Positions 35,814 to 60,869 are shown, counted from the stretch's first letter. The stretch is DNA of 64,000 bases from Nannocystis pusilla (GCF_051105105.1 NZ_CP185339.1); one strand, 5' to 3'. Notes: generated by a model not told the origin, from the sequence alone. Translations and numbers: made by a program.

Positions 35814-37212
35814 TCAGCGCGGCTCGTCGTCGGGGCAGACGAAGCGCTCGAAGCGGCGGGCGAGCACCGAGTCGGGCAGGCGCGCGGCCAGGCGCTGGGC
35901 GGCGGTCGCGGCGTCGGCGGGGCGGCCTTGCAGGCACAGGAGCTCGACCGCGGCGGCCTCGCGGGCGTCGACGAGGGCGCCGCGCGGGAACTGGCGCGCG
36001 TGGGCGTCGAGGAGCTGGGCGGCGCCTGCGGGGTCGCGGGCATCGAGGCGGGCGCGGGCGCGGTCGAGGAGGCCGACCTCGAGGGCGAGGTCGTCGCGGG
36101 CGGGCAGGCGCGTGGATGTCTCTCGGGACAGCAGCTGATCGTAGGCCGGGCGCGTGACCCGGCCGGCGGGCGCGGGTGCGGCTGTCCTCGGGGACAGGCC
36201 GGCCGCCGGGCCCGGCGACAGGGGGGCCGTCGCGCGGGTCCACACGCCGGCGACCTGCGCGCGGAGGTGGGCGAACGAGACCGGGGAGACGGGGGACCGC
36301 AGCGCAGTGGCGGGCGCTTCGGTGGGCGAGATCGAAGCTGTCTCTCGGGACATGTCGTCGGACGAAGGCGTGGCTGTCTCTCGGGACATGTCGTCGGGCG
36401 AAGGCTTGGCTGTCTCTCGGGACATGTCCCCGCTGGAACGAGAGCCAGCTGTCTTTGCGGACAGGTCCTCGATCTGCGCGGCGGCGGCCCGGCCCGGGGC
36501 CTGGCGGGGGGCGACCGCGACGACGGCGGTGGCGCCGGCGACGACGAGGGTGGTCATGACGCCGGCGCGCGCGGTGGTCCAGGCGGCGGCGACGGTGGCG
36601 AGCTTGCCGTGGCCGAAGAGCGGGACCATCACGGCCCAGGTGCGCGAGGCGGCGCCTTCCGGGGGCTCGTCGCGGCGGCGGCTCTCGGCGACCTCGACGG
36701 CCAGCAGCTCGGGGCTGGCGGCCAGCTCGAGCAGGCGGGCGCGCGCGAGGCGGAGCCGCGAGTAGACGGTGTTGAGCGGCAGCTCGAGCTCGGCGGCGAT
36801 CTCGGGGCCGCTCATCCCGAGCAGCTCGGTCAGCTCCCACACCTCGCGGGTGCCGCGAGGCAGGCCGGCGAGCAGGCGCTCGAGCAGGCGGGCAGCGTCG
36901 TGGCGCTCCTGCGGGGCCTCGCCGACGTGGCCGGTGAGGTCGCCGAGGGCGGCGATCCGGCGGGTCCGGCGGGCGACGCCGCGGTGCCAGTGGGAGGCGA
37001 CGCGGCGGGTGACGCCGTACAGCCAGGCGCGCGCCGAGACCTGGTAGTGGACCTGGTCGAAGCGGCGGTAGGCGGTGAGGAAGACGTCCTGGACCACGTC
37101 GTCGCGGGCGGCCGCGGGGACGCCGAAGTACTTCGCGGCCGACCACACGAATTGGAACTTCTCGGTCGTAGATGGCGCGAAAGCGCGCTTCTCGGTCGGT
37201 GGCGAGCAGCAT
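35814..37212 (-). CDS. ECF sigma factor continuing in-frame into an anti-sigma (single-TM) domain; frameshift near 37155
   Basis: Sigma region 2 (DVVQDVFLTAYRRFDQ) and region 4 (VWELTELLGMSGPEIAAELELPLNTVYSRLRLAR) are followed by TM LATVAAAWTTARAGVMTTLVVAGATAVVAVA and an anti-sigma-like C-terminal domain. The N-terminus MLLATDREARFRAIYDREVP is in the adjacent frame. An extra base in the ccaattcg homopolymer explains the shift. Confidence 0.65.
36330..36470. repeat. GGACATGTC-family repeat array with 36-bp period, in-frame within the anti-sigma periplasmic linker
   Basis: Cores at 36351, 36387, 36423 and 36459. It translates as DMSRETAKPSPD / DMSRETATPSSD / DMSRETASISPT. Degenerate copies lie at 36100-36180. 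Confidence 0.75.
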
Positions 37213-37250
37213 GGGGCCGTGGGGGCTGTCCCCGGCCGAGACGGTTTCCG

Positions 37251-38348
37251 TCACCGCGGGTCTCCGAGGCGCAATTCGAGGCCCAGGAGCAGGCGCAGGC
37301 TCGCCGGCGCGCTGGTGAACAGGTTGACCGGCTCCGGGGTGTCCGCCAGGTCGAAGCTCGGGGCGGCCAGGCGGACGAGGCCCTGGGCGGCCAGGCTGAG
37401 GCCGAGCAGCCGGTGAAACCGCCAGGTCGCGCCGGCCGAGACGAGCACGGCGGCCCACAGGCCGGTGGCCGCCCGCGCGCCTGGACCGCGCCCGTGGCCG
37501 CGCAGGCCGCCGAGCTCGGCGCCGCCGCACAGGGGGAACTCAAAGCGGCCACGGGACAGGCGAGCGCAGCCGCGGGCGCCGGCGCCGAGCAGGTAGACGC
37601 GGACCTCGTTGGGCAGGCGGGCCTCGGTCTGCGGGACGAGGTGGACGCCGTGGAACTCGAGGCGAGCGCGCCGCCACAGGACGCCGACGGCGAGCTCGAG
37701 CGCGGCGGTCGGCGCGGGGACCGTGCCGACCTCGAGGCCGGCCGAGAGGCGGAGCAGCGCGCCGGGGCCTCGCTTGCGCGGCGGCGGGGCCGGGGCCAGC
37801 GGCTCGTCGGCGGTGACGAGGGCGGGCTCGGGCGCGGGCTCGGGCGCGGGCGCGAGCGGCTGGATTGGGGCGGCAGGGTCGTCGACGACGACTTCGGGGG
37901 CGAGGGCGACGGGCGGGGCAGGTTCGGGCTCGGGGGCCGCTTCGGGCGCGGGGGCCTCGGGCTCGGGCGATGTCGACTCGACCTCCGACGCGACGGGATC
38001 GGTCGACCCACCGCGCTCGGCGGCGGCGGGGTCGAGCGCGAGGGCGGTCAGGAGCGCGGCCGCGTCGACCAGCGCGGCGCAGCGGCGGGCGCTGAGGCGC
38101 CGGGTCTGAGCGTGGCCGGCGACGGTGAGCCGCAGGTCGAGGTGATACTGCGAGGCGCCGTCCCGCTCGACCCGCCCGACCAGCGAGATCTCGTCGGCGG
38201 CGGGCTCGCGGCCGAGGCGGCCGGCGATCGCCCGGGCCAGGGCGCGGCCATCGGGGCAGCCCGCCGGCGCCTGCCACACGATCGCGTCCGCGGACGGTGG
38301 CTGGGGTACCTGGAACGCGAGCACTGCGGCGAGGAGCGCGGACGGCAT
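37251..38348 (-). CDS. Hypothetical secreted protein with a Pro/Glu/Ala-rich linker and a beta-rich C-terminus
   Basis: Signal MPSALLAAVLAFQVP. PEPEAPAPEAAPEPEPAPP linker. C-terminus with alternating hydrophobic residues (possible outer-membrane barrel). Lies directly upstream of the ECF sigma gene. Confidence 0.5.
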   Translation of the reverse strand: MPSALLAAVLAFQVPQPPSADAIVWQAPAGCPDGRALARAIAGRLGREPAADEISLVGRVERDGASQYHLDLRLTVAGHAQTRRLSARRCAALVDAAALLTALALDPAAAERGGSTDPVASEVESTSPEPEAPAPEAAPEPEPAPPVALAPEVVVDDPAAPIQPLAPAPEPAPEPALVTADEPLAPAPPPRKRGPGALLRLSAGLEVGTVPAPTAALELAVGVLWRRARLEFHGVHLVPQTEARLPNEVRVYLLGAGARGCARLSRGRFEFPLCGGAELGGLRGHGRGPGARAATGLWAAVLVSAGATWRFHRLLGLSLAAQGLVRLAAPSFDLADTPEPVNLFTSAPASLRLLLGLELRLGDPR

Positions 38349-38454
38349 CGTCGGACCGATCCATCCTAGCGCAGACGGCGACCTCCGGCGCCGGTCGGAG
38401 CGGCGCGCCGCGCGCCCAATCGAGCGGCCGCGCGCGGTCGGCCGGCGGCGAGGC

Positions 38455-38515
38455 GATGAATGTCTGCGAGGACATGTCGTGAAAGACATGTCCTCGCAGC
38501 CATGCATAAGCCAGG
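38455..38515. repeat. GGACATGTC repeat cluster
   Basis: The sequence gaatgtctgcgaggacatgtcgtgaaagacatgtcctcgcagccatgcat. Confidence 0.75.
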
Positions 38516-38537
38516 TCGTAGCTCGCGGAGGTGAGGA

Positions 38538-41147
38538 TCAGGGCGGGGGCAGGTCGTTGCCCTCGAGGTTGAGGAAGGTGCGGATCGGCTTGGGGCTGCC
38601 GGCGGCGCCGACGGCGGGGATCTCGAGGCCGTCCCCCTTGAAGAGATCCTCGTCGGAGCGGCCGTCGTCCGGCTTCTCGTCGTCGACGTCGTCGAGGCCG
38701 TTGGGGACGAACAGCTGCGGGTGGTCGAACGGCGCCCGCTCGTAGACGACGTTCGGGTCGGTGAGCGACTGCATGAACAGGACCAGATCTTTGCGCTGCT
38801 CGGCGTCGAGGTCGAGGAAGGTGATGTCGGGGTCGAGCTCGAGGTTGCGGTGGAAGTCGCCGCCGCGGTTGTAGAACTCGACGACCTGCTCGAGGGTCGA
38901 CATGCCGCCGTTGTGCATGTACGGGGCCGTGAGCTGGACGTTGCGCAGGGTCGGGGTCTTGAAGGCGCCGCTGACGGCGGTCCGCAGGCGCTGGATGGAG
39001 CGCTTGTTGGCGGCGTTGTTCTTCGGCTCGCCGGTCGGGGTCTCGAGCTTGTCCTTGCAGTCGGTCTTGTCCCTGAAGCCGCCGGGGAACAGCGGGCGGT
39101 CGACGACGATGTTCCACGGGACGGCGAAGCTGCACGGGTCGACCTCGAACGGGTCGCGCGCGTCCTTGCCGAGCAGCATCTGCACGTACTGCTCGGTGAA
39201 CGACAGCGGGTTGCCGAACGGGTCCTCGCCGCCGACGCCGATGTCCTCGGCGGTCGGCCGCACGCCGATGTTGTAGAAGCCGTTGTCGTAGAGCGCCGGC
39301 TGGCGCAGCTCGACGAGGGTGCTGGGGCCCTGGCCGACGAACGCGAGGGTGCCCTCGTCGTCGTAGACGAGGACGAAGTCGAGCCAGGCGTTGGCGACCT
39401 TGACGTCGTCGAGGACGGAGATCCGCAGCGCCGAGGGGCAACCGCTGCCGCCGACCCGCTTGACGTTGATGCGGGCGTCGCGGGTGGCGGAGTCGTCGAC
39501 GCCGAAGGTCATGGTCTCGGGCTTGTAGGTGCAGCTGGCGTCGTCGTCGACCTTGCTGAGGACGACCTGGCCGACGGCAGGGCCCGGGACGATGTCGTCC
39601 TTCTTGGCGGTGGGGGTGGCCTCGACGTCGATCGTGAGGCTGCGCTGGCCCTTGCCGGGCTTCCACTGCGAAAACGGCAGGACCTTGAACGGCGGGTTGG
39701 TGCGCACGCCGTAGTGGTAGTGCTCCTCGGTCATCAGCATGCGCTCGACCAGGCCGTCCTCGTCCTCCTCGTCGATGAGGTGCAGGGTGGAGGCGCCGGT
39801 GAACATGGCGGTCTTGTGACAGTTGACGCACTTGCCCTGGTTGAGGAAGACGTCGAAGCCGGCGAGCTCGCGCTTGCCGAGCGCCTTGGGATCGCGGCCG
39901 TCGCGGTACCTGTCGAACGGGCTGTCGTCGGAGACGAGGGTGCGCTCGTAGGCCTGGATGGCGAGGCCCCAGAACAGGCTGAAGTTGATCTCCATCAGGC
40001 TGAAGCGCTGGTCGGCGGGGACGGAGTTCGGGTCGGTCAGCAGGTTCTTGTCGGCGTCGAACCATTGCTCCGACTGCCACAGCTTGGCGGCGAAGGCGGC
40101 CTCGATCATCTTCCTGTAAGTGGTCTCCAGGCCCTTGTTCGGCGCGGCCAGCGGGCCGAGCACCGAATCGTCGGGGTGGACCTTCTGAAACGCGAGCGGG
40201 ACGGTGGGCGGGCGCACCAGCTTGCGGCCGACGTTGGGCAGCGTCCGCCCCTGACACGAGGCCTCGAACGGGCTGAGCACCGGACCGACAGCCTGCGAGG
40301 CGAGCGAGCCGTTGACGATCTCGAGCTTGCGCTTGACCGGCTTGCCGCCCTTGACCTCGAGGATGAAGGCGTCCTTGTTGCGGCGGCCGAACGGGTCGAC
40401 GCCGTTGAACCAGCGGTTGGCCCGGCCGTCCCAGAAGTTGCGGAAATTGAAGGCGGCGTTGATCACGGTCGGGGCGTTGCGCGGCTCGACCCGCCGCACG
40501 TTGACGCCGTCGACCTGAAACGGCGGATCGGGGACGGTCTCACACTTGTCGTCCAGCGCGCCGGGCTTGACGGCCTCGAAGTCGGCGCGCCGGACGCCCT
40601 GCGAGGAGGTGGCGTCGTCGGTGTCGAAGAGCACCTTCGAATCGCGGTCCTTGGGGTCCTTCAAGACGTGAAATGGATAGTCGCCGGCGACGAGCTGCAA
40701 ATTGGGCCCCTGGCCGCCGGTCCGGGTCGGATCGAACTTACCGTTGCCGCCGAGCAGACCGGGAGTCAGCTGATTGCGCGATCGGTTGTCGGCGCCGGCC
40801 GCGAAGTGACAGCTGGCGCAAGCCTGGCCGTCGCTGCCGCTCTGCATGTCCCAAAACAGGGCCTTGCCGAGCGCGATCGCGGCGTCGTTGTCGACGATCA
40901 AGTCGGGCTCGACGGGCTTGCCGGTGATCCGGTCGAACAGCGGCGGGAGCTTCTCCTCGGCCAGAGATCCTGGGACGCCGTCGTTCGGCGCGTCCGGTCC
41001 GTCCGGCTCGTCCGGCGGCGCGCCCGGACCGGGGGCCCCGTCGCCGTTCCAGGTGAAGACGAAATCGCATGCCGTCGTCGCCAAGGCGCCGAACCCTATG
41101 CCCATGCATGCGAGCGTGGAGAACCATCCACACAGACGATTACGCAT
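38538..41147 (-). CDS. Di-haem cytochrome c peroxidase (CCP/MauG) family lipoprotein, unusually large (869 aa)
   Basis: Haem-binding CASCH and CVNCH. CCP signatures NAPTVINAAFN..FWDGR and PYMHNGGMSTLEQVVEFY. Lipobox ALATTAC. Confidence 0.8.
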   Translation of the reverse strand: MRNRLCGWFSTLACMGIGFGALATTACDFVFTWNGDGAPGPGAPPDEPDGPDAPNDGVPGSLAEEKLPPLFDRITGKPVEPDLIVDNDAAIALGKALFWDMQSGSDGQACASCHFAAGADNRSRNQLTPGLLGGNGKFDPTRTGGQGPNLQLVAGDYPFHVLKDPKDRDSKVLFDTDDATSSQGVRRADFEAVKPGALDDKCETVPDPPFQVDGVNVRRVEPRNAPTVINAAFNFRNFWDGRANRWFNGVDPFGRRNKDAFILEVKGGKPVKRKLEIVNGSLASQAVGPVLSPFEASCQGRTLPNVGRKLVRPPTVPLAFQKVHPDDSVLGPLAAPNKGLETTYRKMIEAAFAAKLWQSEQWFDADKNLLTDPNSVPADQRFSLMEINFSLFWGLAIQAYERTLVSDDSPFDRYRDGRDPKALGKRELAGFDVFLNQGKCVNCHKTAMFTGASTLHLIDEEDEDGLVERMLMTEEHYHYGVRTNPPFKVLPFSQWKPGKGQRSLTIDVEATPTAKKDDIVPGPAVGQVVLSKVDDDASCTYKPETMTFGVDDSATRDARINVKRVGGSGCPSALRISVLDDVKVANAWLDFVLVYDDEGTLAFVGQGPSTLVELRQPALYDNGFYNIGVRPTAEDIGVGGEDPFGNPLSFTEQYVQMLLGKDARDPFEVDPCSFAVPWNIVVDRPLFPGGFRDKTDCKDKLETPTGEPKNNAANKRSIQRLRTAVSGAFKTPTLRNVQLTAPYMHNGGMSTLEQVVEFYNRGGDFHRNLELDPDITFLDLDAEQRKDLVLFMQSLTDPNVVYERAPFDHPQLFVPNGLDDVDDEKPDDGRSDEDLFKGDGLEIPAVGAAGSPKPIRTFLNLEGNDLPPP

Positions 41148-41653
41148 GCTCCGTTCATTCGCGGCGACCGCGGTGAAAGTTGTGATCGGGGCGAAGTCGG
41201 CTCGGGTCGCCACGGGTGTCGCCGCGAGAACGACGTATCGGGTATCAGGCCGTGCGACAGCGGGGAGGTCCGACCGGACTGCGGCCCCGGCGCCGAGATG
41301 AAACGGTGAATTCGCGGGAAAACAGGCGTTTCAGGCCGATCTGCACGCAAAAGTCGATGGCGTTCTTACGGCGCCGGGCGAGCTCCGTGGATCTACGTGT
41401 TACGATTCGGGTGAAACCCTATACTGTGAGAACGTGGCTCGCTGCACACGCGGTGACCCATTGCGCAGACCTTTCGCTCGCGGCCAGGAGCGGGCGAGCA
41501 ATCGTCCGAGCGGCGTTACGAAGGCCGCGGACAATGACGGTACGAACATCGGCGCGGACCATTCGCGGCAGGCCGCCCGGATCGCGCGCCGCGAAGGACC
41601 GGTCTTTCGGGCCATGTCGGCGGGCTAAAATCCCACCTGGCGCGAGGGACAGA

Positions 41654-41974
41654 TCAACGGCGCCGGGCGGCGCGCGGACGCCATTGATATTCGCCGAGGT
41701 CGATGCGGCCGTCGTCGCCGAACTCGACGCCCTCGGCGACAAGCAGCGCGCGCTGGCGGTCGCCGGAGGGGCCGGACAGGCTGATCTCGCCGCGAGCGTT
41801 GAGGACCCGCTGCCACGGCACGGGGCTGCCGCCGGGCAAGGCGTGGAGGGCGTAGCCGATCTGGCGCGCGCGCCCGGGCAGACCGGCGAGCTCGGCGATC
41901 TGCCCGTAGGTGGCGACGCGGCCGCGGGGGATCCGCTGGATGGTGGCGTAGATCCGGGCGTAGTCGGGGTGCAT
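41654..41974 (-). CDS. MGMT-family DNA-binding protein lacking the catalytic Cys (alkyltransferase-like / YbaZ-type)
   Basis: 106 aa with PRGRVATYGQIAELAGLPGRARQIGYAL...VPWQRVLNARG. The ATG lies 2 nt from the kynureninase stop. Confidence 0.75.
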   Translation of the reverse strand: MHPDYARIYATIQRIPRGRVATYGQIAELAGLPGRARQIGYALHALPGGSPVPWQRVLNARGEISLSGPSGDRQRALLVAEGVEFGDDGRIDLGEYQWRPRAARRR

Positions 41975-41975
41975 G

Positions 41976-44146: not shown

Positions 44147-44151
44147 GGCGA

Positions 44152-44542
44152 CTAGTCCTCCTTGAGGAAAGCCTCGTACTGCTCGGCGGTGAGCAGCCCA
44201 TCGAGCGCGGAGCGGTCGGTCGGGCGGATCCGGACCATCCAGCCGTCGCCGTAGCAGTCGGTGTTGACGTTCCTCGGGCGAGGCGTCGAGCTCGCCGTTG
44301 ACCTCGATCACTTCGCCGTCGATCGGGGCGTACAGCTCGCTCACGGCCTTGACCGAGTCGACCGTACCGAACTCCTGTTCGGCGGTCAGCCGGGTGCCGA
44401 CGGTCGGCAGGGTGACGAGGGTGATGTCGCCGAGGGTGTTGACGGCGTGGTCGGTGATGCCGACGACGACGGTGCCGTCGCTCTCGAGGCGGGCCCACTC
44501 GTGCTCTTTGGTGTAGCGGAGGTTGCTCGGGATCTTGGACAT
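44152..44542 (-). CDS. gcvH: Glycine cleavage system H protein with a 1-bp frameshift near 44273
   Basis: Lipoyl-lysine region GTVDSVKAVSELYAPIDGEVIEVN. The C-terminus NVNTDCYGDGWMVRIRPTD...AEQYEAFLKED is in the adjacent frame. An extra g in the ttcctcggg run explains the shift. Confidence 0.8.
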
Positions 44543-44552
44543 GGTGAAACTT

Positions 44553-44608
44553 CGGGGCAGGTTGTCGGGGACAGGTACGCGGGGACAGGTACGCGGGGAC
44601 AGGTACGA
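44553..44608. repeat. Four tandem 14-bp units GGGGACAGGTACGC (a variant of the family)
   Basis: The sequence ggggcaggttgtc|ggggacaggtacgc|ggggacaggtacgc|ggggacaggtacga lies between gcvT and gcvH. Confidence 0.8.
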
Positions 44609-44621
44609 AGCGACAGCAGGC

Positions 44622-45743
<1,122 letters not shown>

Positions 45744-45814
45744 GGTGCTGCCCCGTTCCCATAGCCAACTTCGGCCGCCGCGGGAAGGGCCGCGGCGTGC
45801 TACACCCCGGGGCG

Positions 45815-48072: not shown

Positions 48073-48963
48073 TCACTCGGGGATGATGATGGCGACGAGC
48101 TTGTCGCAGAACACCGCGTCGAAGGGGCCCGAGATGGCGCCCTCGACCGTCCCGACGACCCGCGGCGGATCGGCGGGGTCGAACGCGTCCCAGTTGCCCG
48201 CGAGCTCGGTGATCTTGACGCTGTCCGGCTCCGGGGGGAAGCCGGTCATTCCCTTGTCGTGGATCGTGGCCATCGTCTCCCAGGTGCCGATCCAGCCCTC
48301 CTCGAGGATCGAGTCGGATTCGACCCAGTGGGCCACGACCAGGCCGGAGTTGCCCATGGGCCAGGGTTCGGCCAGCTCGGTCGCCGCGTCGGCCTCCGGC
48401 GAGAGGAAGACGAGGCGCGGGCTGTAAGGCGTAGTGGCCGCCAACCAGCCGAAGTATGCGCGCTGGGCGGTGAACTGCCCGAACACGGAGGGCCCCTGGA
48501 CCAGGGTGCCGGGCGGAGCGTCGAAGGGGCAGCCGGTGAACCCTTCGAGCCCCGGGAGCGGCCTCGGAGCCATGGTGGTGCCCTCGCTCGAGTCGGTGGC
48601 GCTCACGTCTCCCGTGCTCGACGTGCCGTCGGTGGTCGTCGCGGTGACGGCGGTGCTCGCGGCGTCGGTGGTCGTGCTCGTGATGGTCGTGTCCGCGGTG
48701 TCGGCCGTCGTGGCGGTGATGGCCGTGCTCGCGGTGCTGGTGTCGGGGTCGCTCGTGCTCGACGGATTGGCGGTGGTGGTCGTGGGCCCGGCGCCGGTGG
48801 TCGGGGTCGAGGTGGTCGCAGTGCCGGTGCTCGGGGGAGTCTCGCTGGTACCGGGAGCGGGGTCGCTGTCCTGGGGGTTGTCGCCGACGACGATCGAGGG
48901 GATGCAGGCGGGCAGGACGAGCGTGCAGATGGTGATGAGCGCGGTGCGGGCGGCGAAGGGCAA
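48073..48963 (-). CDS. Hypothetical lipoprotein with a long Thr/Ser-rich linker
   Basis: Lipobox LVLPAC. About 100 aa of T/S/A low-complexity linker. Globular C-terminal domain. Confidence 0.55.
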   Translation of the reverse strand: MPFAARTALITICTLVLPACIPSIVVGDNPQDSDPAPGTSETPPSTGTATTSTPTTGAGPTTTTANPSSTSDPDTSTASTAITATTADTADTTITSTTTDAASTAVTATTTDGTSSTGDVSATDSSEGTTMAPRPLPGLEGFTGCPFDAPPGTLVQGPSVFGQFTAQRAYFGWLAATTPYSPRLVFLSPEADAATELAEPWPMGNSGLVVAHWVESDSILEEGWIGTWETMATIHDKGMTGFPPEPDSVKITELAGNWDAFDPADPPRVVGTVEGAISGPFDAVFCDKLVAIIIPE

Positions 48964-49819: not shown

Positions 49820-49924
49820 ACGGGCAGGCTAGCGCGCGCTCGGTCGGATGCCCGCGCAGGCGCTGCGCGGCGGCGGTCTCAGGCGCGAAAGCCTGGGGAT
49901 TTTACCGGCGGCCAGGCGGCTGTC

Positions 49925-50015
49925 TCCCCGGACATGTCGCAAACGCCAGGCAGGCTCAGCCGTGCTCGCGGGGGGCGCGCGCCTGGGGGATGTCCTCGGG
50001 GACATGCCCCCTAAG
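49925..50015. repeat. Duplicated GGACATGTC + GCCAGGC(A)GGCTCAGCC module
   Basis: The sequence ggacatgtcgcaaacgccaggcaggctcagcc ... ggatgtcctcggggacatgccccctaagccaggctcagcc lies between pcm and nadE. Confidence 0.7.
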
Positions 50016-50021
50016 CCAGGC

Positions 50022-52001: not shown

Positions 52002-52002
52002 T

Positions 52003-52023
52003 CAATGTCTCCGGGGACAGGGT

Positions 52024-52040
<17 letters not shown>
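52003..52040. repeat. GGGGACAGGG / GGACATGTCC repeat pair
   Basis: The sequence caatgtctccggggacagggtctaaaggacatgtcctg lies in the 22-bp gap between the Prs-like stop and the nadE start. Confidence 0.75.
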
Positions 52041-52967
<927 letters not shown>

Positions 52968-52971
<4 letters not shown>

Positions 52972-54921
52972 GCGGCGGGGGAAGAGTACCCCTCGGCGAG
53001 CGCGTTGGCGACCTCGGTATAGGCGTAATCGCTGACGCGTTCGTCGATGCGCATGCGCAGCAGCGCCTTGCTGCGGCAGGTGGCCGCGAAGAAGAACGCG
53101 CGATCGTCGGCGCACGCGCGCGCGAGCGCCGGATCGGCGGTCCAGCGGTCCCACTCGCGCTGGCAGATCCGCCGCACCGCGGGCCACAGGACGTTCGGGC
53201 CGGGGCCGCCGGCGTCGTCGACCCAACCGATCACGGCCGCGAGGTGGGCGTGCACGAGGGTGTGCAGCAGCTTGCCCTGGGCCTCGGCGAGGTCGGAGGT
53301 CAAGGTGAAGGAGTCGGGCGCGAGCGCGGGGGCGTGGCCGGCCGCGGCCAGCCGCCCGCGGTGGAGCCGCACGCCGCCGAGGTCGCGGACGACGAAGCCG
53401 CAGGGGCGCCCGGCGTGGACGAGGAGGGTGTTTTGCAGGTGCGCCTCGAGGGCGACGCCGTGGGCGGTGAGCAGGCGCAGGGCCGCGGGGACCAGGAGGT
53501 CGAGGTAATCGTGGAAGAAGGCCGCGAGGCGCGCGCGCGGATCGCCGGGGTAGTCGGCGGCGAGCTCGCGCAGCAAGAGGTCGCCGCCGGGCCGGCGCTC
53601 GCCGAGGGCGGCGCAGACGACGAGCTGCGGGGTGCGCGATGGGACATGTTCGATAGGGAATGTCGCGCGGGACAGGTCCCCGGGGGCATGTTGCAAGGGG
53701 AATGTCTCGGAGGACAGGTCGGAGACGCGGGCGGAGGGGCGCGAGGGCGGCGAGGCGGTCGGACCGGTGAGCGGGCCGGCGAGCGAATTCGGGGCGGTCC
53801 GCGCGGCGCGGGACGGGTCCCCCGGGGCAGGTGCGGCGAGGGTGGCGAAGAGGTCCGCGTGGAGGTCGCGGGCGAGGGCGGCGGGGTCGGGGCGGAGGAC
53901 GACGCCGAGCTGGCCGGCGCTGGGGCCGTGGCGGGGGTGCAGGCCGGCGGCGGCGAGGTCGGGCTGGACCTGCAGGCCGCGGCGGGTGAGCGGATCGGCG
54001 GCCTGGATCGCGGCCAGGAGGGCGGCGATCGGCGGGCCGTTGTGCACCGAGGCGGGCGAGACCTGGCGCCGCGCGCTGGTGGTGTGGATGTCGACGGCCA
54101 GCTTGAGGTGCAGCGCGGGGGCGACGAGGGCGACGGTGCGCAGGCTGAGCAGGGCGCGCGCGTGCAGCGGGGGCAGGCCGGCCGGGCGGACCTCGCGGCC
54201 CCACAGCGGGCCGAGCAGGCGCGGGAGGCGGCGCAGCTGCAGGGCGTGGACGGGCAGGCGGACGAGGCCCGGCGGCGGGGCCGGGAACAGGGCGCGCGCG
54301 AGCTCGGCGTAGACGGTCGGCTCGGCCAGCTGGGCGTGTTCGGCGGCGACGTTCGACGGCGTGGACGGCCGCCTGGGCCAGCAGGTCGGGGCCATGGCGC
54401 AGGTTCTCCCAGGCGCGCAGGCCGAGCCGGGTCTTGCTCATCGGGTGCCACGGGTGGCCGTCGACGACCAGGTTCTCGGGGTCGAGCGGGGCGGGCCACG
54501 GCTGGCCTTTAGAGCATGTCCGATGGCGCAGGTCGGCGGCGACGCGGGCGAGGGCGAGGTTCCAGCGGCTGTCGGCGAGCTCGCCTGCGATCCGGGCGCG
54601 GATGGCGGGGGCGAGCGCGGGCAAGAGGCGCGGGAGGAGGCCGGGGAGGTCGGGGAGGTCGGCGCCGTCGAGGTCGGCGGCGTGCAGCTCGAAGGCCCGG
54701 CGCCGGCGCAGCGGGAGGCTCAAGGAACATGTGCGAAGGGACATGTCCTGGAGGTCGAATTCGACCAGCCGCTCGCGCGCGCAGGCGAGGACGAGGCGGG
54801 CGCCGATCGCCTGGGTCGCGGCCCGCCAGTGGGCGGCGAGCTCGGCGGGCGCCGGCCGGGCGCCGAACGCGACAGGCACGGCCCGGGCGGCGAAGGCGAG
54901 GAAGCGGTCGCGCTCGGACAC
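52968..54921 (-). CDS. IucA/IucC family (NRPS-independent siderophore synthetase-like) protein with a frameshift near 54330 and in-frame palindromic-repeat insertions
   Basis: N-terminal block [17 protein letters not shown] is in one frame. The mid-domain [24 protein letters not shown], the catalytic region [19 protein letters not shown] and the FhuF-like C-terminus are in the adjacent frame. The segment between the SLRT-like and H-Q-N blocks is roughly 75 aa longer than in characterised members, and it contains the 84-bp repeat array. The start is uncertain (GTG about 54921). Confidence 0.6.
53645..53728. repeat. Six 14-bp-phased repeat units (84 bp = 28 codons), in-frame inside the IucA/IucC ORF
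   Basis: Cores at 53645, 53659, 53673, 53687, 53701 and 53715. It translates to [28 protein letters not shown]. Further copies inside the same ORF lie at 54510-54535 and 54720-54750. Confidence 0.8.
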
Positions 54922-54934
54922 GGGCGAAAGGTAG

Positions 54935-55187
54935 CGCGCGGGGCCGGACGACGAAAGCGGCCGGTCCAGCCGGGAGTGGAGCTCGCGCCCGAGTCGTCGC
55001 GCGGGGCCGGACGACGAAAGCGGCCGGTCCAGCCGGGAGTGGAGCTCGCGCCCGAGTCGTCGCGCGGGGCCGGATGACGAAAGCGGCCGGTCCAGCCGGG
55101 AGTGGAGCTCGCGCCCGAGTCGTCGCGCGGGGCCAGGCGCTGCGAGCGGCAGGTCGGGTGAGCCGGTGGAGCTCGTGGCCGAGTGGT
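54935..55187. repeat. Three near-perfect and one degenerate tandem copies of a 63-bp unit
   Basis: The unit gcgcggggccggacgacgaaagcggccggtccagccgggagtggagctcgcgcccgagtcgtc repeats at 54935, 54998 and 55061. A degenerate fourth copy lies at 55124-55187. Confidence 0.8.
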
Positions 55188-55217
55188 CGGGCGCGGCGGG
55201 GCGACGAGCGCCGCCGG

Positions 55218-55990
55218 TCAGGCCGCGCGGCGGAGCTCGAGGCCGAGTTCGCCGAGCATGAGGGCGGCGGACAGGAGCAAGATCCAGGCGATCCAGCGGC
55301 GCAGGCTGTCGGGGTCGAGGTCGCCGGTGCGGCGGGCGCCGAGGTTGGCGCCGAGCAGGGTGAGCGGGGTGACGACGGCGAAGGCGGTGAGGTCGACCTG
55401 TCCTTGGAGGAAGGTGGCGACGCCGGCCGACAGCCCGGTGACGGCGCCGATCGCCATGTTGGTGCCGACGGCCACGGGCGGGGGGACGCGGGCGTAGCGG
55501 ATCATGGCCGGCAGGCGCAGGCTGCCGAGGAGGAGGCCGACGAGGCCCGAGATCGCGCCGAGGACGGCGCCGACGACGACCTCGGCGAGGACGGCGAAGG
55601 TGCGCGAAGGGACATGTTCGGAAGGACCGGCGGGCTCGGGCCGGGGCCGCAGCATGGCGGCGCCGGTGAGCAGGAGGACGCCGGCGATGGCGGCCTTGAG
55701 GAGGCGGGCGTCGACGCTGCCGGCCCAGCGCGCGGTGGCGAAGGCGGCGACGGCCGAGGGCGCGCCGACGGTGGCCAGCAGCCACAGGCTGACGCGGCCG
55801 TCGCGGGCGTGACGCCAGGTGCCGGTGAGGGTGCCGGCGGTGGAGATGGCGAGGCTGGTGGCGGCCCCGACGACGGGGCTGCCGAGGACGTAGACGAGGA
55901 GGGCCACCCGCAGCTGACCGAGCACGAGCCCGACCGTGGCGCCGATGTAGCTGAGGCCGAAGGAGACCAGCGCGATGAGCGCCAGCGCGA
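55218..55990 (-). CDS. TauE/SafE (DUF81) family anion exporter; no canonical start codon
   Basis: Two TauE half-repeats of TM helices with GxxxG-rich segments. The N-terminal helix [22 protein letters not shown] lies upstream of the GTG given in the ORF track, and no ATG/GTG/TTG was found there. A GGACATGTTC repeat unit (55600-55625) lies in-frame in the central loop ([11 protein letters not shown]). Confidence 0.65.
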
Positions 55991-56148
55991 GGATCTCGGT
56001 GGAGCGCAGGCGCCGACGCTATCACGCGCGCGGCGAGTCCGGGGCAGCCGCGCCGACGCGAGCGCCGACATGAGGTGGCGTTCATGATCGCAGCGTTCAC
56101 GCCTCGCGCGATGCGAGGCCGCGTGCATCGGCGTCGGCGCGAGCGATC

Positions 56149-57003
56149 GTGTCGGCGGTGAAAGCCGGGAGGCGGCTTGACAGGCGGGCGCGCGGGGGCG
56201 GACGCTGCGGCGGCGTGACGGAGCGCGGAGACACTGCGGCGGCGGAGGAGCTCGCAACGGGGCTCTCAGGGCCGACGAGGCCGCGCTGGGTGGTGATCCA
56301 CTGGACGCCGGAGGCGCTCGGGCTGGTGCGGGCGATCGCGGCGGCCGAGCCGGCGCCGGAGCTGACGCTGATCGGGCCGGCGCCGGCGGACGAGGTCGCG
56401 GCGGCGCTGGCCGAGTTGCCCGCGGGACATGTCCAAAAGTACTGGCAAGGCTCGGCGAGCGGCGGGGTCGAGGCGCTGGCGCGCTTCTTCGCCGACACCG
56501 CCGGGCTGCCGGCGGCCGACGCGATCATCGTGCTGCCGCTGCGCGGCCACGGCGAGACCGACGCGTTCTCGCGCCTGGTGTGCACGGCGATCCTGCGCGC
56601 CTGCAAGGGCAAGCCGCCGCACGTGGTGGTGGCGGTCGAGGACCCGGAGGCGACCCACGAGTTCGAGGGCCTGGGGGTGGCGACGATCTTCTACCCGGGC
56701 TTTCTGCGCGCGGCGCTGCTGGCCCACGCGTGCATCGACCTCGGGGCGTTCCGCTTCATGCTGGCGCTGCTCGGCGGGCGCCTGCGCGTCGAGACCTGGC
56801 CGGTGCCGCCGGAGCTGCGCGCGGGGACGTTCCGCGAGGCCTGCCTGAACGTGGAGGTCGACCGCCGCGGCCGCCCGGTGACGCTGATCGGGCTGTTCGC
56901 GCCCGGCGAGGGCGGGCCGGACGCGATGCTGCTGAGCCCGTCGCCCGCCCGCCCGCTGCGCGACGCGAGCGCGCTGCTGGTGCTGACCGGGGAGGCCGAG
57001 TGA
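56149..57003 (+). CDS. Soluble RCK/TrkA-like (Castor/Pollux-type cytosolic domain) protein; start uncertain
   Basis: Rossmann-like alternating patterns ([38 protein letters not shown]) resemble the C-terminal domains of the downstream channel gene. Confidence 0.35.
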
Positions 57004-57083
57004 GACGCGGGCGCGGGGTGCGGCGGCAGGACGACGCGGACGGCGCGAGCTCGTCGCGGGCGCGGTGGCCTGGTCGTCGGGGC

Positions 57084-59408
57084 ATGTTCTCTCGGACATG
57101 GCCGATCGCTACTGTCTTCTTGGGCATGTTCCTGCAGACAGGCGCGGCGCGGGCGGGCGAGGCGATCGTGGTCCGCTTCGGCTCGGGGGCGAAGAAGGGC
57201 GGCTTCGACGTGACCGCGCACGCGCTGGCCGAGGCGGTCCAGGGCGAGGGGCGGGTGACGATCGCGCCGGAGGCGACCCGGGGCTCGTGCGAGAACGTCC
57301 ACAAGCTGCTGTCGGGCGAGCTCGACGCGGCGCTGGTGCAGTACGACGTGGCGGCGGAGGCGTTCAAGGCCGGGCTGGCCGACGCGGACGCGGGCGACAG
57401 CGCGATCCCGAAGGGCGGGTGGATGTGCAAGCTGTCGCCCGAGGAGGCCGACAAGGCCGAGCTGCGGGTGATCGCGGCGGTGTCCGACGCGGCGGTCCAC
57501 GTGCTGGTGCGCCGGCCGGTGCGCCTCGACGACTTCGCCGAGATCGGCCGCGAGCCGCTGTTCATGGGCAAGGACGGCTCGGGCAGCTACGAGACGGCCA
57601 AGGTGATCCTCGGCGCGGCCGGCCACACCGCGGAGCAACTGCCGCTGTTCACGGGCACGGCCGACGAGGCGCTGGCGGCGATGAGCCGGCGCGAGCTGCT
57701 GACGATGCTGCGCACCACCGAGCCCGGGCACGCGGAGATCCGCGACGTGCTGGCGTCGGGCCTGGCGACCCTGAACCCGCTGCCCGAGGGGGTGCTAAAC
57801 CGCCTGATCGACGGCTACCCGTACTACCGGATCTGCCCGATCGAGACCGGGACCTATCCTGGCCTCGAGTACAGCATGCCGACGGTGTGCGTGAGCTCGG
57901 TGGTGCTGGTGGCGACGCCGCGCGAGCGGGTCGAAGACGAGAGCTTCTTGGCCGACCGTCGGCTGGCGGTCGAGGCGATGATCCAGGGGCTCAAGAAGCT
58001 CGCGCGCGACAAGCAGTACGCGAGCCTCAAGATCCGCGTGGAGTGGCGCGGGTTCGCCGAGCGCGAGCCGATCCCGCTCCACCCGGTGGCCGAGCTGCAC
58101 GAGACCAGCGAGCGCCGGCAGGCGTGGCTGCAGGGCGGGGCGTTCGCGGCGGCGCTGGGGTTGGCGCTGTACCTGGTGCGCCGGGCGCTGCGGCGGCGGC
58201 GGGTCCCGGGCGCGGGGATCGAGAGCCAGCTGTCGAACCCGCTGGTGCCGTTCGCCGCGTTCGCGTGCGTGGTGACGCTGTCGACGTTCATCGTCTGGTC
58301 TCTGGAACATGACTCGAACGCCAGGCTCAGGACGCTCAACGACTCGTTCTGGGAGATGAACACGTTCGCCACCGGCAACTTCACGACCGAGACGCTGAAG
58401 ACGCCGACGGCGCGGCTGGTCGGGGCGGCGGCGACGATCCTCGGGCTCGGCCTGCTCGCGTGGTTCACCGCGACGCTGACCAACATCTTCGCGCAGGAGC
58501 AGACGCGGCTGTGGCGGCGGCTCAACCGGCACCTGGTGGTGCTGAACTTCCGCGAGGACATGCTGCCGCTGATCCGGCTGCTGCGCAGCCCGGGGCCGAC
58601 CCGGCACCGGCCGCTGCACGTGGTGGTGTCCGACGCGCTGCCGCGGCGGGTGCGGCTGCAGCTGGCGCGCGTGAAGGCGCTGACGATCCACCACTCGAAC
58701 CCGGAGGTGCCGGAGGACCTGGCGGGGCTGCGGCTGCCGCGGGCGTCGCGGGTGATCGTGCTCGGCGACGGCGACGGGTCGGGGGCCAGCTACGATCCGC
58801 TGCGGATCGCCCGCGCGGTCCATCAGGCGTGCGCCCGCGACCCGCTCGGCGGCGGCCAGCGAGCGCGGACGCTCGGGGTGGCGGCGACGTCGGTGGAGAT
58901 CGCCCGCACCGCGCCGGCGCTGCCGGTGACTCTGGTCGAGACGTCGGAGGCGGAGCGCGAGGAGGTGTTCTCGCCGTTCGCGGCCTGGCTGGTGCCGGTC
59001 GATTGCCAGGCGCTGGCGCACCGCTGGCTGGTGATGGCGTGCCGCGACCGCGCGTTCGCGGAGCTGTTCAACCGCGTGGTGGCGTTCGCCGACGACAACG
59101 CCGAGGTCTACACGGCGCCGGCACCGACCTGGCTCATCGGACAGCCGTGGCGCAAGGTCCGGCGCGCGTTGCTCGAGGTGCAGGGCCGCGGCGGCGCGGT
59201 GCCGCTGGGGCTGTATCGCGCCGCCGATCCGGGCGGCAAGGCGCCGGCGGGCGGGACGTCGCACGCGGAGCTGCGGCGGCGGCTGATCGTCAACCCGCGG
59301 CCGGACGAGACGCTGGTGCCGGGCGACCTGATCGTGGCGCTGTGCGAGGACGAGGCCGACCTGGTGCGGATCGTGGCCGAGAGCCGCAAGGTCGCGGCGC
59401 CGGGCTGA
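57084..59408 (+). CDS. Fusion protein: periplasmic TAXI-type solute-binding domain + 2-TM pore domain + tandem RCK/Castor-Pollux-like cytosolic domains
   Basis: Signal MFSRTWPIATVFLGMFLQTGAARA. TAXI-like PBP2 motifs (GS.EN..L..GELDAALVQYD, GKDGSGSYETAKVILGAAG). TM1, a pore-helix-like segment FWEMNTFATGNFTTETL and TM2. Then RCK-like segments (HLVVLNFRED..., ASRVIVLGDGD). The ATG and signal-peptide coding are supplied by a GGGCATGTTC/GGACATGG repeat array (57078-57140). Confidence 0.65.
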   Translation: MFSRTWPIATVFLGMFLQTGAARAGEAIVVRFGSGAKKGGFDVTAHALAEAVQGEGRVTIAPEATRGSCENVHKLLSGELDAALVQYDVAAEAFKAGLADADAGDSAIPKGGWMCKLSPEEADKAELRVIAAVSDAAVHVLVRRPVRLDDFAEIGREPLFMGKDGSGSYETAKVILGAAGHTAEQLPLFTGTADEALAAMSRRELLTMLRTTEPGHAEIRDVLASGLATLNPLPEGVLNRLIDGYPYYRICPIETGTYPGLEYSMPTVCVSSVVLVATPRERVEDESFLADRRLAVEAMIQGLKKLARDKQYASLKIRVEWRGFAEREPIPLHPVAELHETSERRQAWLQGGAFAAALGLALYLVRRALRRRRVPGAGIESQLSNPLVPFAAFACVVTLSTFIVWSLEHDSNARLRTLNDSFWEMNTFATGNFTTETLKTPTARLVGAAATILGLGLLAWFTATLTNIFAQEQTRLWRRLNRHLVVLNFREDMLPLIRLLRSPGPTRHRPLHVVVSDALPRRVRLQLARVKALTIHHSNPEVPEDLAGLRLPRASRVIVLGDGDGSGASYDPLRIARAVHQACARDPLGGGQRARTLGVAATSVEIARTAPALPVTLVETSEAEREEVFSPFAAWLVPVDCQALAHRWLVMACRDRAFAELFNRVVAFADDNAEVYTAPAPTWLIGQPWRKVRRALLEVQGRGGAVPLGLYRAADPGGKAPAGGTSHAELRRRLIVNPRPDETLVPGDLIVALCEDEADLVRIVAESRKVAAPG

Positions 59409-59669
59409 CGGCGCGGCGCGCGACGCGGGCAGGCGCGCATGGGCGCCGGAGCGCGCTGCCGGTCCACGCCTCGCGCTCGGAGTCGGAGGGTCTGCAGGCT
59501 GCGGCCGCAGCGGCGAGGTGAACGAGCTGCAGGTCGCGACAGCGGTCGATCGCAGCGAGGATGCGGTAGCGAGGTCGCGACGCGGGCCGTCGACCCCACG
59601 CGCGGGCGCGAGTCGCCTGCCGCGCGCCGGTTGACTGCGGCGGCGGTCAGGTCGTATGCGAAAGATGAG

Positions 59670-60869
59670 ATGCTGCCCTCTCGCGTCGTCCTCGCGTGGT
59701 CTTCCGTGCTCGTCGTCGGCTGCTATTCGGGCGTCGCGGAGGTGACCGAGAGCATCGGCGCGCCGGAGACCGCGAGTGAGGCGACGAGCACCGGCGCGGG
59801 CGCGGCGAGCAGCGAACCGGAGACGAGCGATGCGAGCGCGCCGGGCACCGGCGAGGCGTCGACTTCGGGACCGCCGACGAGCACGAGCGGCGCCGGGACG
59901 ACGACCACGGGGCCGGACGAGGTGTCCTCGGGGCCAGGTCCGACCGGCGACGGGACCTCCGGCGCGGCTTCGGCGACCACCGGCGAGCTCACCACCGGCG
60001 AGCTCACCACCGGCGAGCTCACCACCGGCGACATCACCACCACCGGCGAGCCGATCGATCCGGCGGCGGAGGTGTGCGCGCGCTGGACGGCGGACCGTAC
60101 GGACATGTCTGAAGGGACATGGAGCGGGGCGGTCGCCGGCTGTCAGGCGGGGGACACGGGCGCGCCGGGCCGCGACAACGCGCTCAGGCTGATCAACTTG
60201 TACCGCTGGCTGGCCGGGCTGCCGGCGGTCGGGCACGACCCCGGGCTCGGCGCCAAGGCGCAGCAGTGCGCGCTGATGATGCACGCCAACGGGCAGCTGT
60301 CGCACGACCCGCCGATGCAGTGGGACTGTTACACCGCCGACGGGGCGCAGGCGGCGAAGAACAGCAACATCTCGTCGACGCCGGGCGTGGTAGCGGTCGA
60401 CCTCTACATGGTCGACCCCGGCAACGCGACGACCTTCGGCCACCGGCGGTGGATCCTCTCGAACAAGCTCGGGCCGGTCGGGCTCGGGTCGACGGCCGTC
60501 AACTCGTGCATGTGGGTGATCGGCGGGCAGGGCGGCGGCGACGCGGCGTGGACGGCCTGGCCGCCGCCCGGGGTGGTGCCGATCGCCGCGATCCACGTGC
60601 CCGAGGTGCCGTGGTCCGACGTCGACGAGACGGGCTGGACGATCCAGAGCGACGCGATCGACCTCGGCGCGGCGCAGGTCAAGATCAGCGAGGGCGGGGT
60701 CGACCGGCCGGTGAAGACGACGGCGCTCATGGGCGGGTTCGGCTCGGCCAGCGCGATCGCCATGACGCCGCAGGGCTGGACCTCGGAGGCCGGCAAGACC
60801 TACACGGTGGCGGTCAGCGGGGTGCCGCAGCCGTTCAGCTACGACGTGCAGGTGGTCGCCTGCCCATGA
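59670..60869 (+). CDS. CAP (CRISP/Ag5/PR-1, SCP) domain lipoprotein with a Ser/Thr/Gly-rich linker
   Basis: Lipobox LVVGCYSG. (GELTT)x3 tandem peptide repeat. The CAP core LINLYRWLAGLPAV...AQQCALMMHANGQLSHDPP..WDCYT..GAQAAKNSNI..HRRWIL. A GGACATGTCTGAAGGGACATGG repeat pair at 60100-60125 is in-frame (TDMSEGTWS), and the stop codon lies inside the next repeat array. Confidence 0.75.
   Translation: MLPSRVVLAWSSVLVVGCYSGVAEVTESIGAPETASEATSTGAGAASSEPETSDASAPGTGEASTSGPPTSTSGAGTTTTGPDEVSSGPGPTGDGTSGAASATTGELTTGELTTGELTTGDITTTGEPIDPAAEVCARWTADRTDMSEGTWSGAVAGCQAGDTGAPGRDNALRLINLYRWLAGLPAVGHDPGLGAKAQQCALMMHANGQLSHDPPMQWDCYTADGAQAAKNSNISSTPGVVAVDLYMVDPGNATTFGHRRWILSNKLGPVGLGSTAVNSCMWVIGGQGGGDAAWTAWPPPGVVPIAAIHVPEVPWSDVDETGWTIQSDAIDLGAAQVKISEGGVDRPVKTTALMGGFGSASAIAMTPQGWTSEAGKTYTVAVSGVPQPFSYDVQVVACP

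Follow-up and report, generated by a model that had tools for sequence, protein, structure and literature searches.

Within the window, that is, the whole stretch of 64,000 nucleotides of Nannocystis pusilla DNA analysed here, a 12-nt perfect palindrome, GGGACATGTCCC, and a 2-nt spacer form a 14-bp unit that is repeated head-to-tail, mainly in intergenic arrays at gene 3′ ends. The genus Nannocystis probably carries a very short palindromic repeat family, which, taken as one joint account, would consist of REP-like 3′-end arrays that are open in six frames and that have three routes into coding sequence. We found no prior description of a Nannocystis 14-bp repeat.

The palindrome recognized in the first-pass annotation is real: with up to two mismatches, GGGACATGTCCC has 33 matches in the 64-kb window compared with 2.9 expected (0 of 100 shuffles reach 33), a PWM scan at ≥12 bits gives 46 matches compared with 2 expected, and the flanks of the GGGACATGTCCC matches have a strict 14-bp periodicity. 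Arrays comprise two to six units with variable spacers. Within the unit, the information content is greatest in the central ACATGT and is not evenly distributed over the stem, and CATG is the most conserved part; variant arrays that lack CATG (GGGACAGGT) nevertheless persist and expand.

Intergenic arrays and their folding potential

Matches of ≥12 bits occur at 2.27 per kb outside coding sequence and 0.21 per kb inside it (approximately 10-fold), and the arrays usually either start 0–25 nt past a stop codon or occupy the spacer of a convergent gene pair. The five-unit array at 4491..4572 has its first unit 6 nt past the trpF stop, with PWM spacing of 14 or 28 bp (predicted RNA fold −50.6 kcal/mol, z −6.1); another five-unit array (33766..33833) begins 6 nt past a stop at 33760 (−45.7 kcal/mol, z −3.8), and an array of four to five units (14717..14784) ends 11 nt from the stop of a minus-strand FtsJ-like gene (−53 kcal/mol, z −5.5). 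Two-unit arrays are found 14 nt past the stop of the minus-strand gene 15512–16183 (15473..15498) and past the stop of the minus-strand gene 38538–41105 (38469..38494), where the units form a perfect 15-bp stem (−29.6 kcal/mol, z −8.2). The PWM scan also identified intergenic arrays of two units (6186..6211) and four units (9748..9801; z −3.1). Downstream of the NAD-synthase stop, the units at 49929..50010, the last of which is 12 nt from the stop, are kept in seven species, and the remaining spacer is not alignable.

Convergent genes flank two three-unit arrays at 18720..18863 (z −2.7 and −6.3); in the second of these, units 1 and 3 are reverse complements, flanks included. The five-unit array at 21706..21773 occupies the whole spacer between convergent stops at 21695 and 21775 (−44.5 kcal/mol, z −4.4), and a four-unit array (60870..60923) fills the spacer between the stop of the CAP-domain gene and a convergent stop at 60925–60927 (−36.9 kcal/mol, z −4.0), with a consensus structure retained in six species. 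The CAP stop, previously placed inside a repeat unit, lies at 60867–60869, one base off from that placement; it touches the array, although it adjoins the unit core rather than being contained in it.

Across ten intergenic arrays, the predicted RNA folds range from −20 to −53 kcal/mol (z −2.7 to −8.2), with neighbouring units pairing to form long, stable predicted hairpins. The long in-gene and gene-edge arrays fold more weakly (z −1.4 to −2.1), and two-unit sites fold locally (CAP z −4.0; IucA/IucC site A z −3.0). Folding is not a uniform property of the family: a non-palindromic variant array (44566..44607), located 15 nt past a stop and composed of three copies of CGGGGACAGGTACG with 100% identity, has no folding signal (z −0.4), and arrays can thus expand without hairpin function. 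Based on position and folding, the intergenic arrays may be REP-like elements at gene 3′ ends that would work either at the DNA level, as a structure, or as hairpins that form RNA ends or terminate transcription. Intrinsic (Rho-independent) termination is an unproven role: the hairpins are predicted, but there is no T-tract downstream of the arrays, and a consensus terminator scan of 20 kb gave a shuffle-like result (5 sites compared with 3.8 expected), with only one of these sites in contact with an array. In the single array examined for covariation, 1 of 18 pairs is compensatory. The information peak at ACATGT is more readily explained by recognition of a specific sequence than by structure alone.

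The arrays resemble the REP/BIME elements of Enterobacteria and Pseudomonas in being short, clustered, extragenic palindromes at gene 3′ ends and in convergent spacers with predicted stem-loops, a resemblance that for the stem-loops is one of folding potential only. However, REP/BIME units are imperfect palindromes of 20–40 nt in alternating orientation, whereas the Nannocystis unit is a perfect 12-nt palindrome in a rigid 14-bp head-to-tail arrangement, some copies of which are in-frame parts of genes.

Repeat units in reading frames

The consensus array contains no stop codon in any of the six frames, and encodes a cyclic, Ser/Thr/Pro-rich 14-residue peptide, DMSxGTCPxGHVPx; as 14 equals 2 modulo 3, the peptide is identical whichever frame or strand is read. 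This peptide agrees with those observed at the in-gene sites, and the in-frame tolerance of arrays inside genes follows from the openness of the consensus in six frames. The earlier claim that the same repeat occurs in frame inside real genes is borne out: all of the claimed copies are in frame, and the host genes have Pfam domains and orthologs. At ≥10 bits, coding sequence has 31 matches compared with 23 after synonymous shuffling, weak single matches being near background; at ≥15 bits, there are 6 matches compared with approximately 1 expected, of which three belong to one tandem array. The coding-sequence excess depends on few independent sites.

Two of these sites are disordered linkers. 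On the minus strand, an in-frame minisatellite at 36337..36469 lies in the linker that follows the transmembrane (TM) segment of a fused ECF sigma factor, and encodes three DMSRETA repeats (DMSRETAKPSPD/DMSRETATPSSD/DMSRETASISPT). Its 36-bp period (36337–36428; 2.6 copies, 96% match) pairs a strong unit with a degenerate one in each copy, and among orthologs the DMSRETA/DLSxET copies range from 0–1 to at least 7. The 36-bp period, the three repeats and the frame are thus as originally described, but the host is not a separate anti-sigma gene: it is a single ORF comprising an ECF sigma factor, a TM segment and a C-terminal domain, with 100% identity to an NCBI N. pusilla protein. The second linker site is a six-unit, 84-bp array with a 42-bp super-period (53641..53724, minus strand), located between the IucA_IucC and FhuF domains of the IucA/IucC synthetase and encoding 28 residues, as had been proposed for an insert between conserved blocks. 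The array is an insertion relative to outgroups, which have none; an insert of independent origin, with a 14-residue (42-nt) periodicity, is found elsewhere in the same linker in a second clade. The peptide encoded by the six-unit array is modelled by AlphaFold as coil (pLDDT below 50 to 75). From these sequence comparisons, true lineage-specific insertion or expansion appears to be confined to the disordered IucA/IucC interdomain and ECF sigma linkers, where arrays expand by frame-preserving blocks of 42 bp (three units) or 36 bp, probably through local tandem duplication or slippage. The split in the IucA/IucC gene is not at an array: a single nucleotide is inserted near 54352, away from any repeat, and this frame break, which is unrelated to the arrays, is one of four in the window; it is probably an assembly error.

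The remaining in-gene sites consist of one or two units. The two further IucA/IucC copies noted previously are both in frame on the minus strand in the N-terminal domain: a single unit at 54511..54522 encodes RHRTCSKG, where motif-free homologs have a segment of the same length that reads RVRARLAGR, and two units at 54724..54749 encode QDMSLRTCS, for which motif-free homologs have a homologous segment of near-equal length. The latter falls in a beta-hairpin in the AlphaFold model (pLDDT ~96). In the gene at 56149/56290–57003, a plus-strand unit (56424..56435) encodes AGHVQK, which aligns without gaps to RGSVEY of genome L006. The copy claimed for the CAP-domain protein, a lipoprotein, is likewise present, as two in-frame units on the plus strand (60100..60125) that encode TDMSEGTWS; the alignment of this peptide to AALGEGSWS (L009) and AQLGEGSWS (L006) has no gaps, approximately 13 of 24 nt differ, and two rare codons that end in A (ACA and GAA) are retained in 7 of 7 species. 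The gap-free alignment of these four sites to motif-free orthologs indicates overwriting rather than insertion, such that one or two units have replaced an equal-length stretch of structured protein, perhaps by clustered substitution or short-patch conversion. The claimed copy in the central loop of the TauE/SafE exporter was confirmed as a single minus-strand unit (55609..55620) encoding EHVPS, with a 22-mer in common with the IucA/IucC linker unit at 53631–53652; the loop is 3 residues longer than in two orthologs and 5 residues shorter than in a third, and orthologs with 96–97% identity occur in Nannocystis sp. RBIL2 and N. pusilla.

Overwriting of this kind has a counterpart in the uptake sequences (USS/DUS) of Pasteurellaceae and Neisseriaceae, 10–12-mers that accumulate by point substitution under molecular drive, encode characteristic peptides in tolerant regions of genes, and form inverted pairs in terminators; unlike the Nannocystis units, USS/DUS themselves are neither palindromic nor tandemly phased.

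In the third route into coding sequence, gene ends run into adjacent arrays. The start codon of the TAXI gene (ATG at 57084) lies within a unit of a plus-strand array of about five in-phase, partly degenerate units (57079..57146) that encodes the signal peptide, as the first-pass annotation had proposed; the peptide opened by this ATG, MFSRTWPIATVFLGMFLQTGAARA, is conserved in seven species, and the sequence upstream of the ATG is not alignable across species. The TAXI signal peptides of L009 and L006 are motif-free and of similar length, and in L006 a seven-unit array upstream of the gene ends in the ATG. The Mur-ligase stop (TGA, 6026–6028) does lie inside a unit, GGGACATGACCG (6020–6031), of a plus-strand array at 6006..6045 that encodes the tail WDVPVGT; C-terminal tails of the orthologs are variable, with ...GRDMPEGT in a sister strain. 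Two minus-strand units (52014..52039) span the end of a PRPP-synthase-like gene, encoding its C-terminal residues AGHVL together with the TAG stop, and in the distant orthologs of L006 and L010 the stop comes five codons sooner, without the unit. Mycobacterial MIRUs are also tandem intergenic repeats of a GC-rich genome with reading frames that overlap flanking stop and start codons. MIRU units, however, are non-palindromic, 46–101 bp long and situated within operons, as opposed to 14-bp palindromes.

Conservation and alternative origins

Over six orthologous loci, unit cores are 0.86 identical and CATG 0.95, compared with 0.70 for other intergenic positions. Third-codon positions are 0.92 identical in in-gene units and 0.90 elsewhere (p = 0.2), in an underpowered test. 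Among 36–46 indels relative to genomes with 92–94% identity (L001 and L002), no unit is cleanly gained or lost, and L008 (88–95% identical) has a single extra unit-sized piece of 13 nt. No transposase, and hence no RAYT (IS200/IS605-like) enzyme of the kind that accompanies REP/BIME elements, was seen among the approximately 30 proteins scanned in the 64-kb window.

A tentative alternative to the REP-like family is that the unit is a HIP1-like target (core RCATGY/ACATGT), recognized by a protein with sequence specificity, for example a regulator, a nucleoid protein or an orphan methyltransferase. Selection, or a bias in repair, conversion or uptake, would keep this target abundant, with tandem arrays as a by-product of slippage. 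Cyanobacterial HIP1 (GCGATCGC) provides a precedent, being conserved both inside ORFs and in the DNA between them and having a link to methyltransferases (PMC5861425; PMC4390886). HIP1 is a short, over-represented palindrome that occurs in genes as well as in non-coding DNA, shows conservation at orthologous positions and does not spread by transposition (PMC5861425). The Nannocystis motif is over-represented in the same manner, and the information peak at ACATGT, the CATG conservation in intergenic arrays, the constant-length origin of coding units (as at CAP, where ACA and GAA are kept in the overwritten stretch), and the 42-bp spacing of three units, which would equal four turns of B-DNA, are all consistent with such a target. 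However, HIP1 is dispersed singly with similar density in genes, whereas the Nannocystis copies are arrayed, hairpin-forming and strongly biased to intergenic DNA at gene 3′ ends; in addition, the expansion of arrays without CATG and the lack of a detected excess of synonymous-site conservation (in the underpowered test above) count against this reading, and the 64-kb window yielded no candidate for a binding protein or methylase.

It is distinctly unlikely that the units derive from a mobile sequence, akin to a Rickettsia palindromic element (RPE) or a MITE, that inserts in frame and adds peptides to surface loops. RPEs are palindromic repeats found in frame within unrelated protein-coding genes, to which they add a peptide while the ORF is kept (PMC10969869). 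The IucA/IucC and ECF sigma linkers behave in an RPE-like manner, since the IucA/IucC insert is lineage-specific, built of units and modelled as low-pLDDT coil, with an independent insert in a second clade, and the copy number of the ECF sigma linker varies; the 22-mer common to the TauE loop and the IucA/IucC linker also favours mobility. The comparison with RPEs made in the first-pass annotation therefore holds for these two linkers but not for CAP, the two IucA/IucC N-terminal sites and 56424, where motif-free orthologs have equal-length segments, in one case within a well-folded beta-hairpin, such that these copies are not lineage-specific insertions but same-length replacements; for these sites, this is the outcome that the first-pass annotation itself had named as refuting its reading. 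Furthermore, RPEs are discrete elements of ~100–150 bp, each with its own conserved peptide, from AT-rich reduced genomes, whereas the Nannocystis unit is 14 bp, arrayed and mostly intergenic, without visible terminal repeats or target duplications; the near absence of unit presence/absence differences among the close relatives and the transposase scan also argue against mobility. Chance or annotation artefact, in which false ORFs in a genome of 73% GC, or random matches that contain CATG, would mimic a repeat family, is highly improbable and largely refuted, because, despite the near-background weak singles, several "start-codon" matches that are a lone CATG and the frameshifts in the window, Pfam domains flank the arrays on both sides in host genes, the orthologs are intact single ORFs with many database homologs, the IucA/IucC linker array is an insertion, strong matches are at least sixfold enriched in coding sequence, and exact 14-bp multi-unit phasing is not expected by chance.

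A bolder reading, which we regard as unlikely, is that the palindrome represents a new class of "coding-neutral" genomic signal, written by a sequence-specific drive that overwrites even structured protein segments. If so, short-patch conversion, biased repair and methylation-linked selection on RCATGY would be candidates for the drive, and the frame-invariant openness in six frames would be an evolved property, by which the signal could occupy coding DNA and seed new peptide modules such as linkers, signal peptides and tails.

Repeat units and their distribution

The repeat family, built of 14-bp units (a 12-nt palindromic, CATG-centred core and a 2-nt spacer), is enriched in the window, in which GC content is 70–77%. 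Sequences matching GGGACATGTCCC with at most two mismatches occur 33 times versus 2.9 expected, and a symmetrised PWM at ≥12 bits retrieves 46 matches versus 2 in Markov controls. In the aligned matches, information content is maximal at the central ACATGT, and further CATG-centred units lie at exactly 14 nt on both sides; successive PWM matches are likewise 14 or 28 bp apart. The repeat is apparently undescribed in the searchable literature: searches on the motif, Nannocystis repeats, and myxobacterial REPs gave nothing relevant (only p53 response-element and unrelated papers), no Rfam family matched at any point of the window, and the three-unit pattern had no match in viral contigs. One candidate for a shared array flank at two gene ends, TGAGGCGGTCT, was rejected, as its 2 matches (versus 1.7 expected) can be accounted for by chance.

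Based on a codon-usage gene model backed by Pfam, matches at ≥12 bits number 2.27 per kb in non-coding DNA and 0.21 per kb in coding sequence. Multi-unit arrays lie directly past stop codons or occupy the gap between convergent stops (4491–4572, 14717–14784, 18720–18863, 21706–21773, 33766–33833, 38469–38494, 49985–50010, and 60870–60923). Their predicted RNA folds reach -20 to -53 kcal/mol, with z of -2.7 to -8.2 relative to dinucleotide shuffles; adjacent units pair together, and flanks sometimes pair as well. No T-tract was found 3′ of the arrays, and a consensus scan for canonical terminators returned sites no more numerous than in shuffles.

Comparison loci and conservation of the arrays

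Ten orthologous loci (L001–L010) served as comparators, of which seven are syntenic with window 49–64 kb (83–97% identity in aligned blocks); L006, L007, L009, and L010 are more distant Nannocystis metagenome-assembled genomes that match at ~69–81%. Syntenic loci for TauE occur in Nannocystis only, with 96–97% amino-acid identity to N. sp. RBIL2 and N. pusilla Na p29. Across six orthologous loci, identity to the window is 0.86 for intergenic unit cores and 0.95 for CATG, versus 0.70 for the remaining intergenic positions. Array positions are kept between species, and spacer sequence and copy number differ; the single array alignable across 6 species for RNA covariation is nearly invariant. In a list of all indels that separate the window from three orthologous loci (aligned blocks 88–95% identical), no clean gain or loss of a unit was present among the 36–46 indels relative to L001 and L002 (92–94% identical), and L008 (88–95% identical) has a single additional unit-sized piece of 13 nt; there is thus no sign of recent transposition.

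Variant, non-palindromic arrays also occur: GGGGACAGGTAC in three copies at 100% identity (44566–44607), and GGGACAGGTC in seven copies upstream of the TAXI gene in L006. These variant units have undergone array expansion although they do not fold. In N. punicea (L004 ~4600–4830, the ortholog of window 60835–60925), the final ~35 nt of the CAP gene, the stop codon, and two units are tandemly duplicated 3–4 times.

The region also contains other repetitive or variable DNA. A 63-bp tandem repeat (54935–55134; 3.2 copies, 99% identical), distinct from the 14-bp family, separates TauE from the start of IucA/IucC, and the window has 126 bp more of this repeat than L001. Between the same two genes, N. 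pusilla Na p29 (L002) and N. punicea (L004) have ~2.4 kb of extra DNA (locus ~10700–13100) that is absent from the window and the other species. Further unrelated tandem repeats (76–84% identity) have periods of 105 bp (6233–6488), 65 bp (8746–8953), 71 bp (14298–14499), and 36 bp (48612–48736).

Four conserved genes within the 64 kb are each broken by a 1-nt insertion: the Mur-ligase P-loop region (~4858), BipA/TypA (~12400–12420), the ECF sigma N-terminus (~37160), and IucA/IucC, in which an extra A near 54352 in GTCGAACGTCG splits the ORF. Orthologs of all four genes are intact, and four IucA/IucC orthologs lack the extra A. These breaks are therefore probably not pseudogenes but indel errors made in assembling the source N. 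pusilla genome. Repeats are present at none of the four, and the extra A in IucA/IucC is far from any unit, so arrays were rejected as the cause of the frameshifts.

Units within protein-coding genes

Of the 16 spacers possible, 15 leave the consensus array stop-free in all six frames. Owing to the palindromic core and a period of 14 (2 mod 3), each frame on either strand encodes an identical cyclic 14-residue peptide, DMS-x-GTCP-x-GHVP-x, from which every peptide observed within genes is drawn; this arithmetic offers a simple reason why genes tolerate the repeat. Coding matches at ≥15 bits number 6 (three of them in one tandem array) versus 1.1 under synonymous shuffling and 0.7 under codon-order shuffling; weak coding matches are close to background. 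Third-codon positions of in-gene units gave no measurable excess conservation (not significant, with several orthologs failing to anchor). Long arrays in genes or at gene edges are degraded palindromes (ACCTGT, ACATTC) that are barely more stable when folded than shuffled sequences (z -1.4 to -2.1); at the two-unit sites in CAP and IucA/IucC (site A), local hairpins still form (z -4.0 and -3.0).

Arrays contribute to proteins at gene boundaries, and two such cases proposed in the first-pass annotation were upheld. The TAXI gene is conserved in frame from its ATG (57084) onward, and species are unalignable upstream; the array supplies both this ATG and a signal peptide (MF-sr-TWP-ia-TVF-lg-MF-lq-TG), in which an n-region precedes the hydrophobic core and the cleavage motif ARA|G. 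In distant TAXI orthologs the signal peptides are of similar length but lack the repeat motif, and in L006 the start ATG closes a seven-unit GGGACAGGTC array. The Mur-ligase TGA (6026–6028) belongs to the core variant ACATGA, with the final 7–8 codons derived from the array and differing tails in orthologs. The PRPP-synthase-like gene is 5 codons longer than its distant orthologs and runs into a unit (tail AGHVL, then stop). Inside the gene at 56424, a unit encodes AGHVQK.

The CAP gene, which encodes a lipoprotein with a hypervariable linker and starts near 59670–59676 (MLPSRVVLAWSSVLVVGC), had also been credited with a stop inside a unit and an inserted repeat, neither of which was borne out. 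Its stop (60867–60869) adjoins the first unit of the array but lies outside it. Against AALGEGSWS and AQLGEGSWS of distant, motif-free orthologs, the TDMSEGTWS encoded by the in-gene units aligns gap-free, with ~13 of 24 nt changed (about double the local divergence); these units thus arose by overwriting rather than insertion. The linker, hypervariable as a whole across species, carries an in-frame 15-bp repeat (TTGEL, 4.4 copies; 59976–60041) that exceeds its counterparts in L001 and L002 by 42 nt. Upstream of the start (59630–59670), GGTTGAC - 17 nt - TATTCG/TATGCG looks like a sigma-70-type promoter; this element is conserved in 7/7 close species, and the rest of the spacer is unalignable.

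In IucA/IucC, a six-unit, 84-bp array (53641–53724) between the IucA_IucC and FhuF domains encodes a 28-residue piece of the peptide cycle and has no counterpart in distant homologs. In a second clade, an independent insert with a period of 14 aa (42 nt, three units; PVPSDLSQRPPPRPP) lies a few residues further downstream. In an AlphaFold model of an intact ortholog (88% identical; mean pLDDT 91.9), residues 387–416, encoded by the repeat, fall inside the sole long coil (363–417), with pLDDT <50 at 381–398. In-frame insertion, proposed for all the IucA/IucC copies, therefore holds for this linker but not for the N-terminal domain units (54511 and 54724–54749), which encode RHRTCS and QDMSLRTCS, respectively: motif-free homologs have the same length there, with RVRARLAGR for RHRTCSKGQ and a GDALLLRPAG-like segment for DMSLRTCS, the latter site lying in a beta-hairpin of the model (pLDDT ~96). 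The TauE central loop does contain one unit, encoding EHVPS, yet its status as a lineage-specific insertion is ambiguous (+3 aa versus two distant orthologs, -5 aa versus a third). The 22-mer GGTGCGCGAWGGGACATGTTCG, encoding EHVPSRT, is common to the IucA/IucC linker (53631–53652) and the TauE loop (55599–55620), 2 kb apart, and may reflect past short-patch conversion between these neighbours.

The array first assigned to an anti-sigma linker is indeed a 36-bp in-frame minisatellite (DMSRETA), but its host is an ECF sigma ORF rather than a separate anti-sigma factor. This single ORF (100% identical to an NCBI N. pusilla protein) comprises sigma regions 2 and 4, a TM segment, the hypervariable linker that carries the minisatellite, and a conserved C-terminal domain. 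Copies of DMSRETA/DLSxET range among orthologs from none or one to at least seven, and Paraliomyxa homologs have none. Nannocystis has a large family of paralogous ECF sigma proteins fused to a TM segment and a ~90-aa conserved C-terminal domain (here window 35814–37250), and each genome gives many matches of 350–500 aa.

Origin and significance of the repeat

The data are best explained by mini-palindrome arrays that occupy gene 3′ ends and form a REP-like family across the genus. Such arrays would expand by duplicating locally, and because they lack stops and read alike in every frame, coding sequence would be able to absorb them. From position and folding alone, we infer a hairpin or termination role; a purely structural role is argued against by the lack of T-tracts, a sequence signal that is highest at the centre, and the expansion of the non-folding array at 44566–44607. 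These same observations make a HIP1-like reading a serious and partly compatible rival, in which RCATGY would be recognised by a protein or methylase and the motif maintained by selection or drive (compare HIP1; PMC5861425). The overwriting of structured segments at equal length points to a motif-creating process. The likeness to Rickettsia palindromic elements (PMC10969869) suggested in the first-pass annotation is restricted to the linker inserts (IucA/IucC and ECF sigma) and does not extend to the same-length CAP and IucA/IucC N-terminal sites.

There are practical consequences: in Nannocystis genomes, the arrays will mislead the calling of starts and stops, and the peptides that they encode (DMSxxT..., HVPS...) could pass wrongly for conserved protein motifs. 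Bacterial repeats inside intact genes form a short list, to which Nannocystis adds a GC-rich, large-genome myxobacterial case, in which repeat DNA has been the raw material for a signal peptide, for disordered linkers, and for the C-terminal tails of real proteins.
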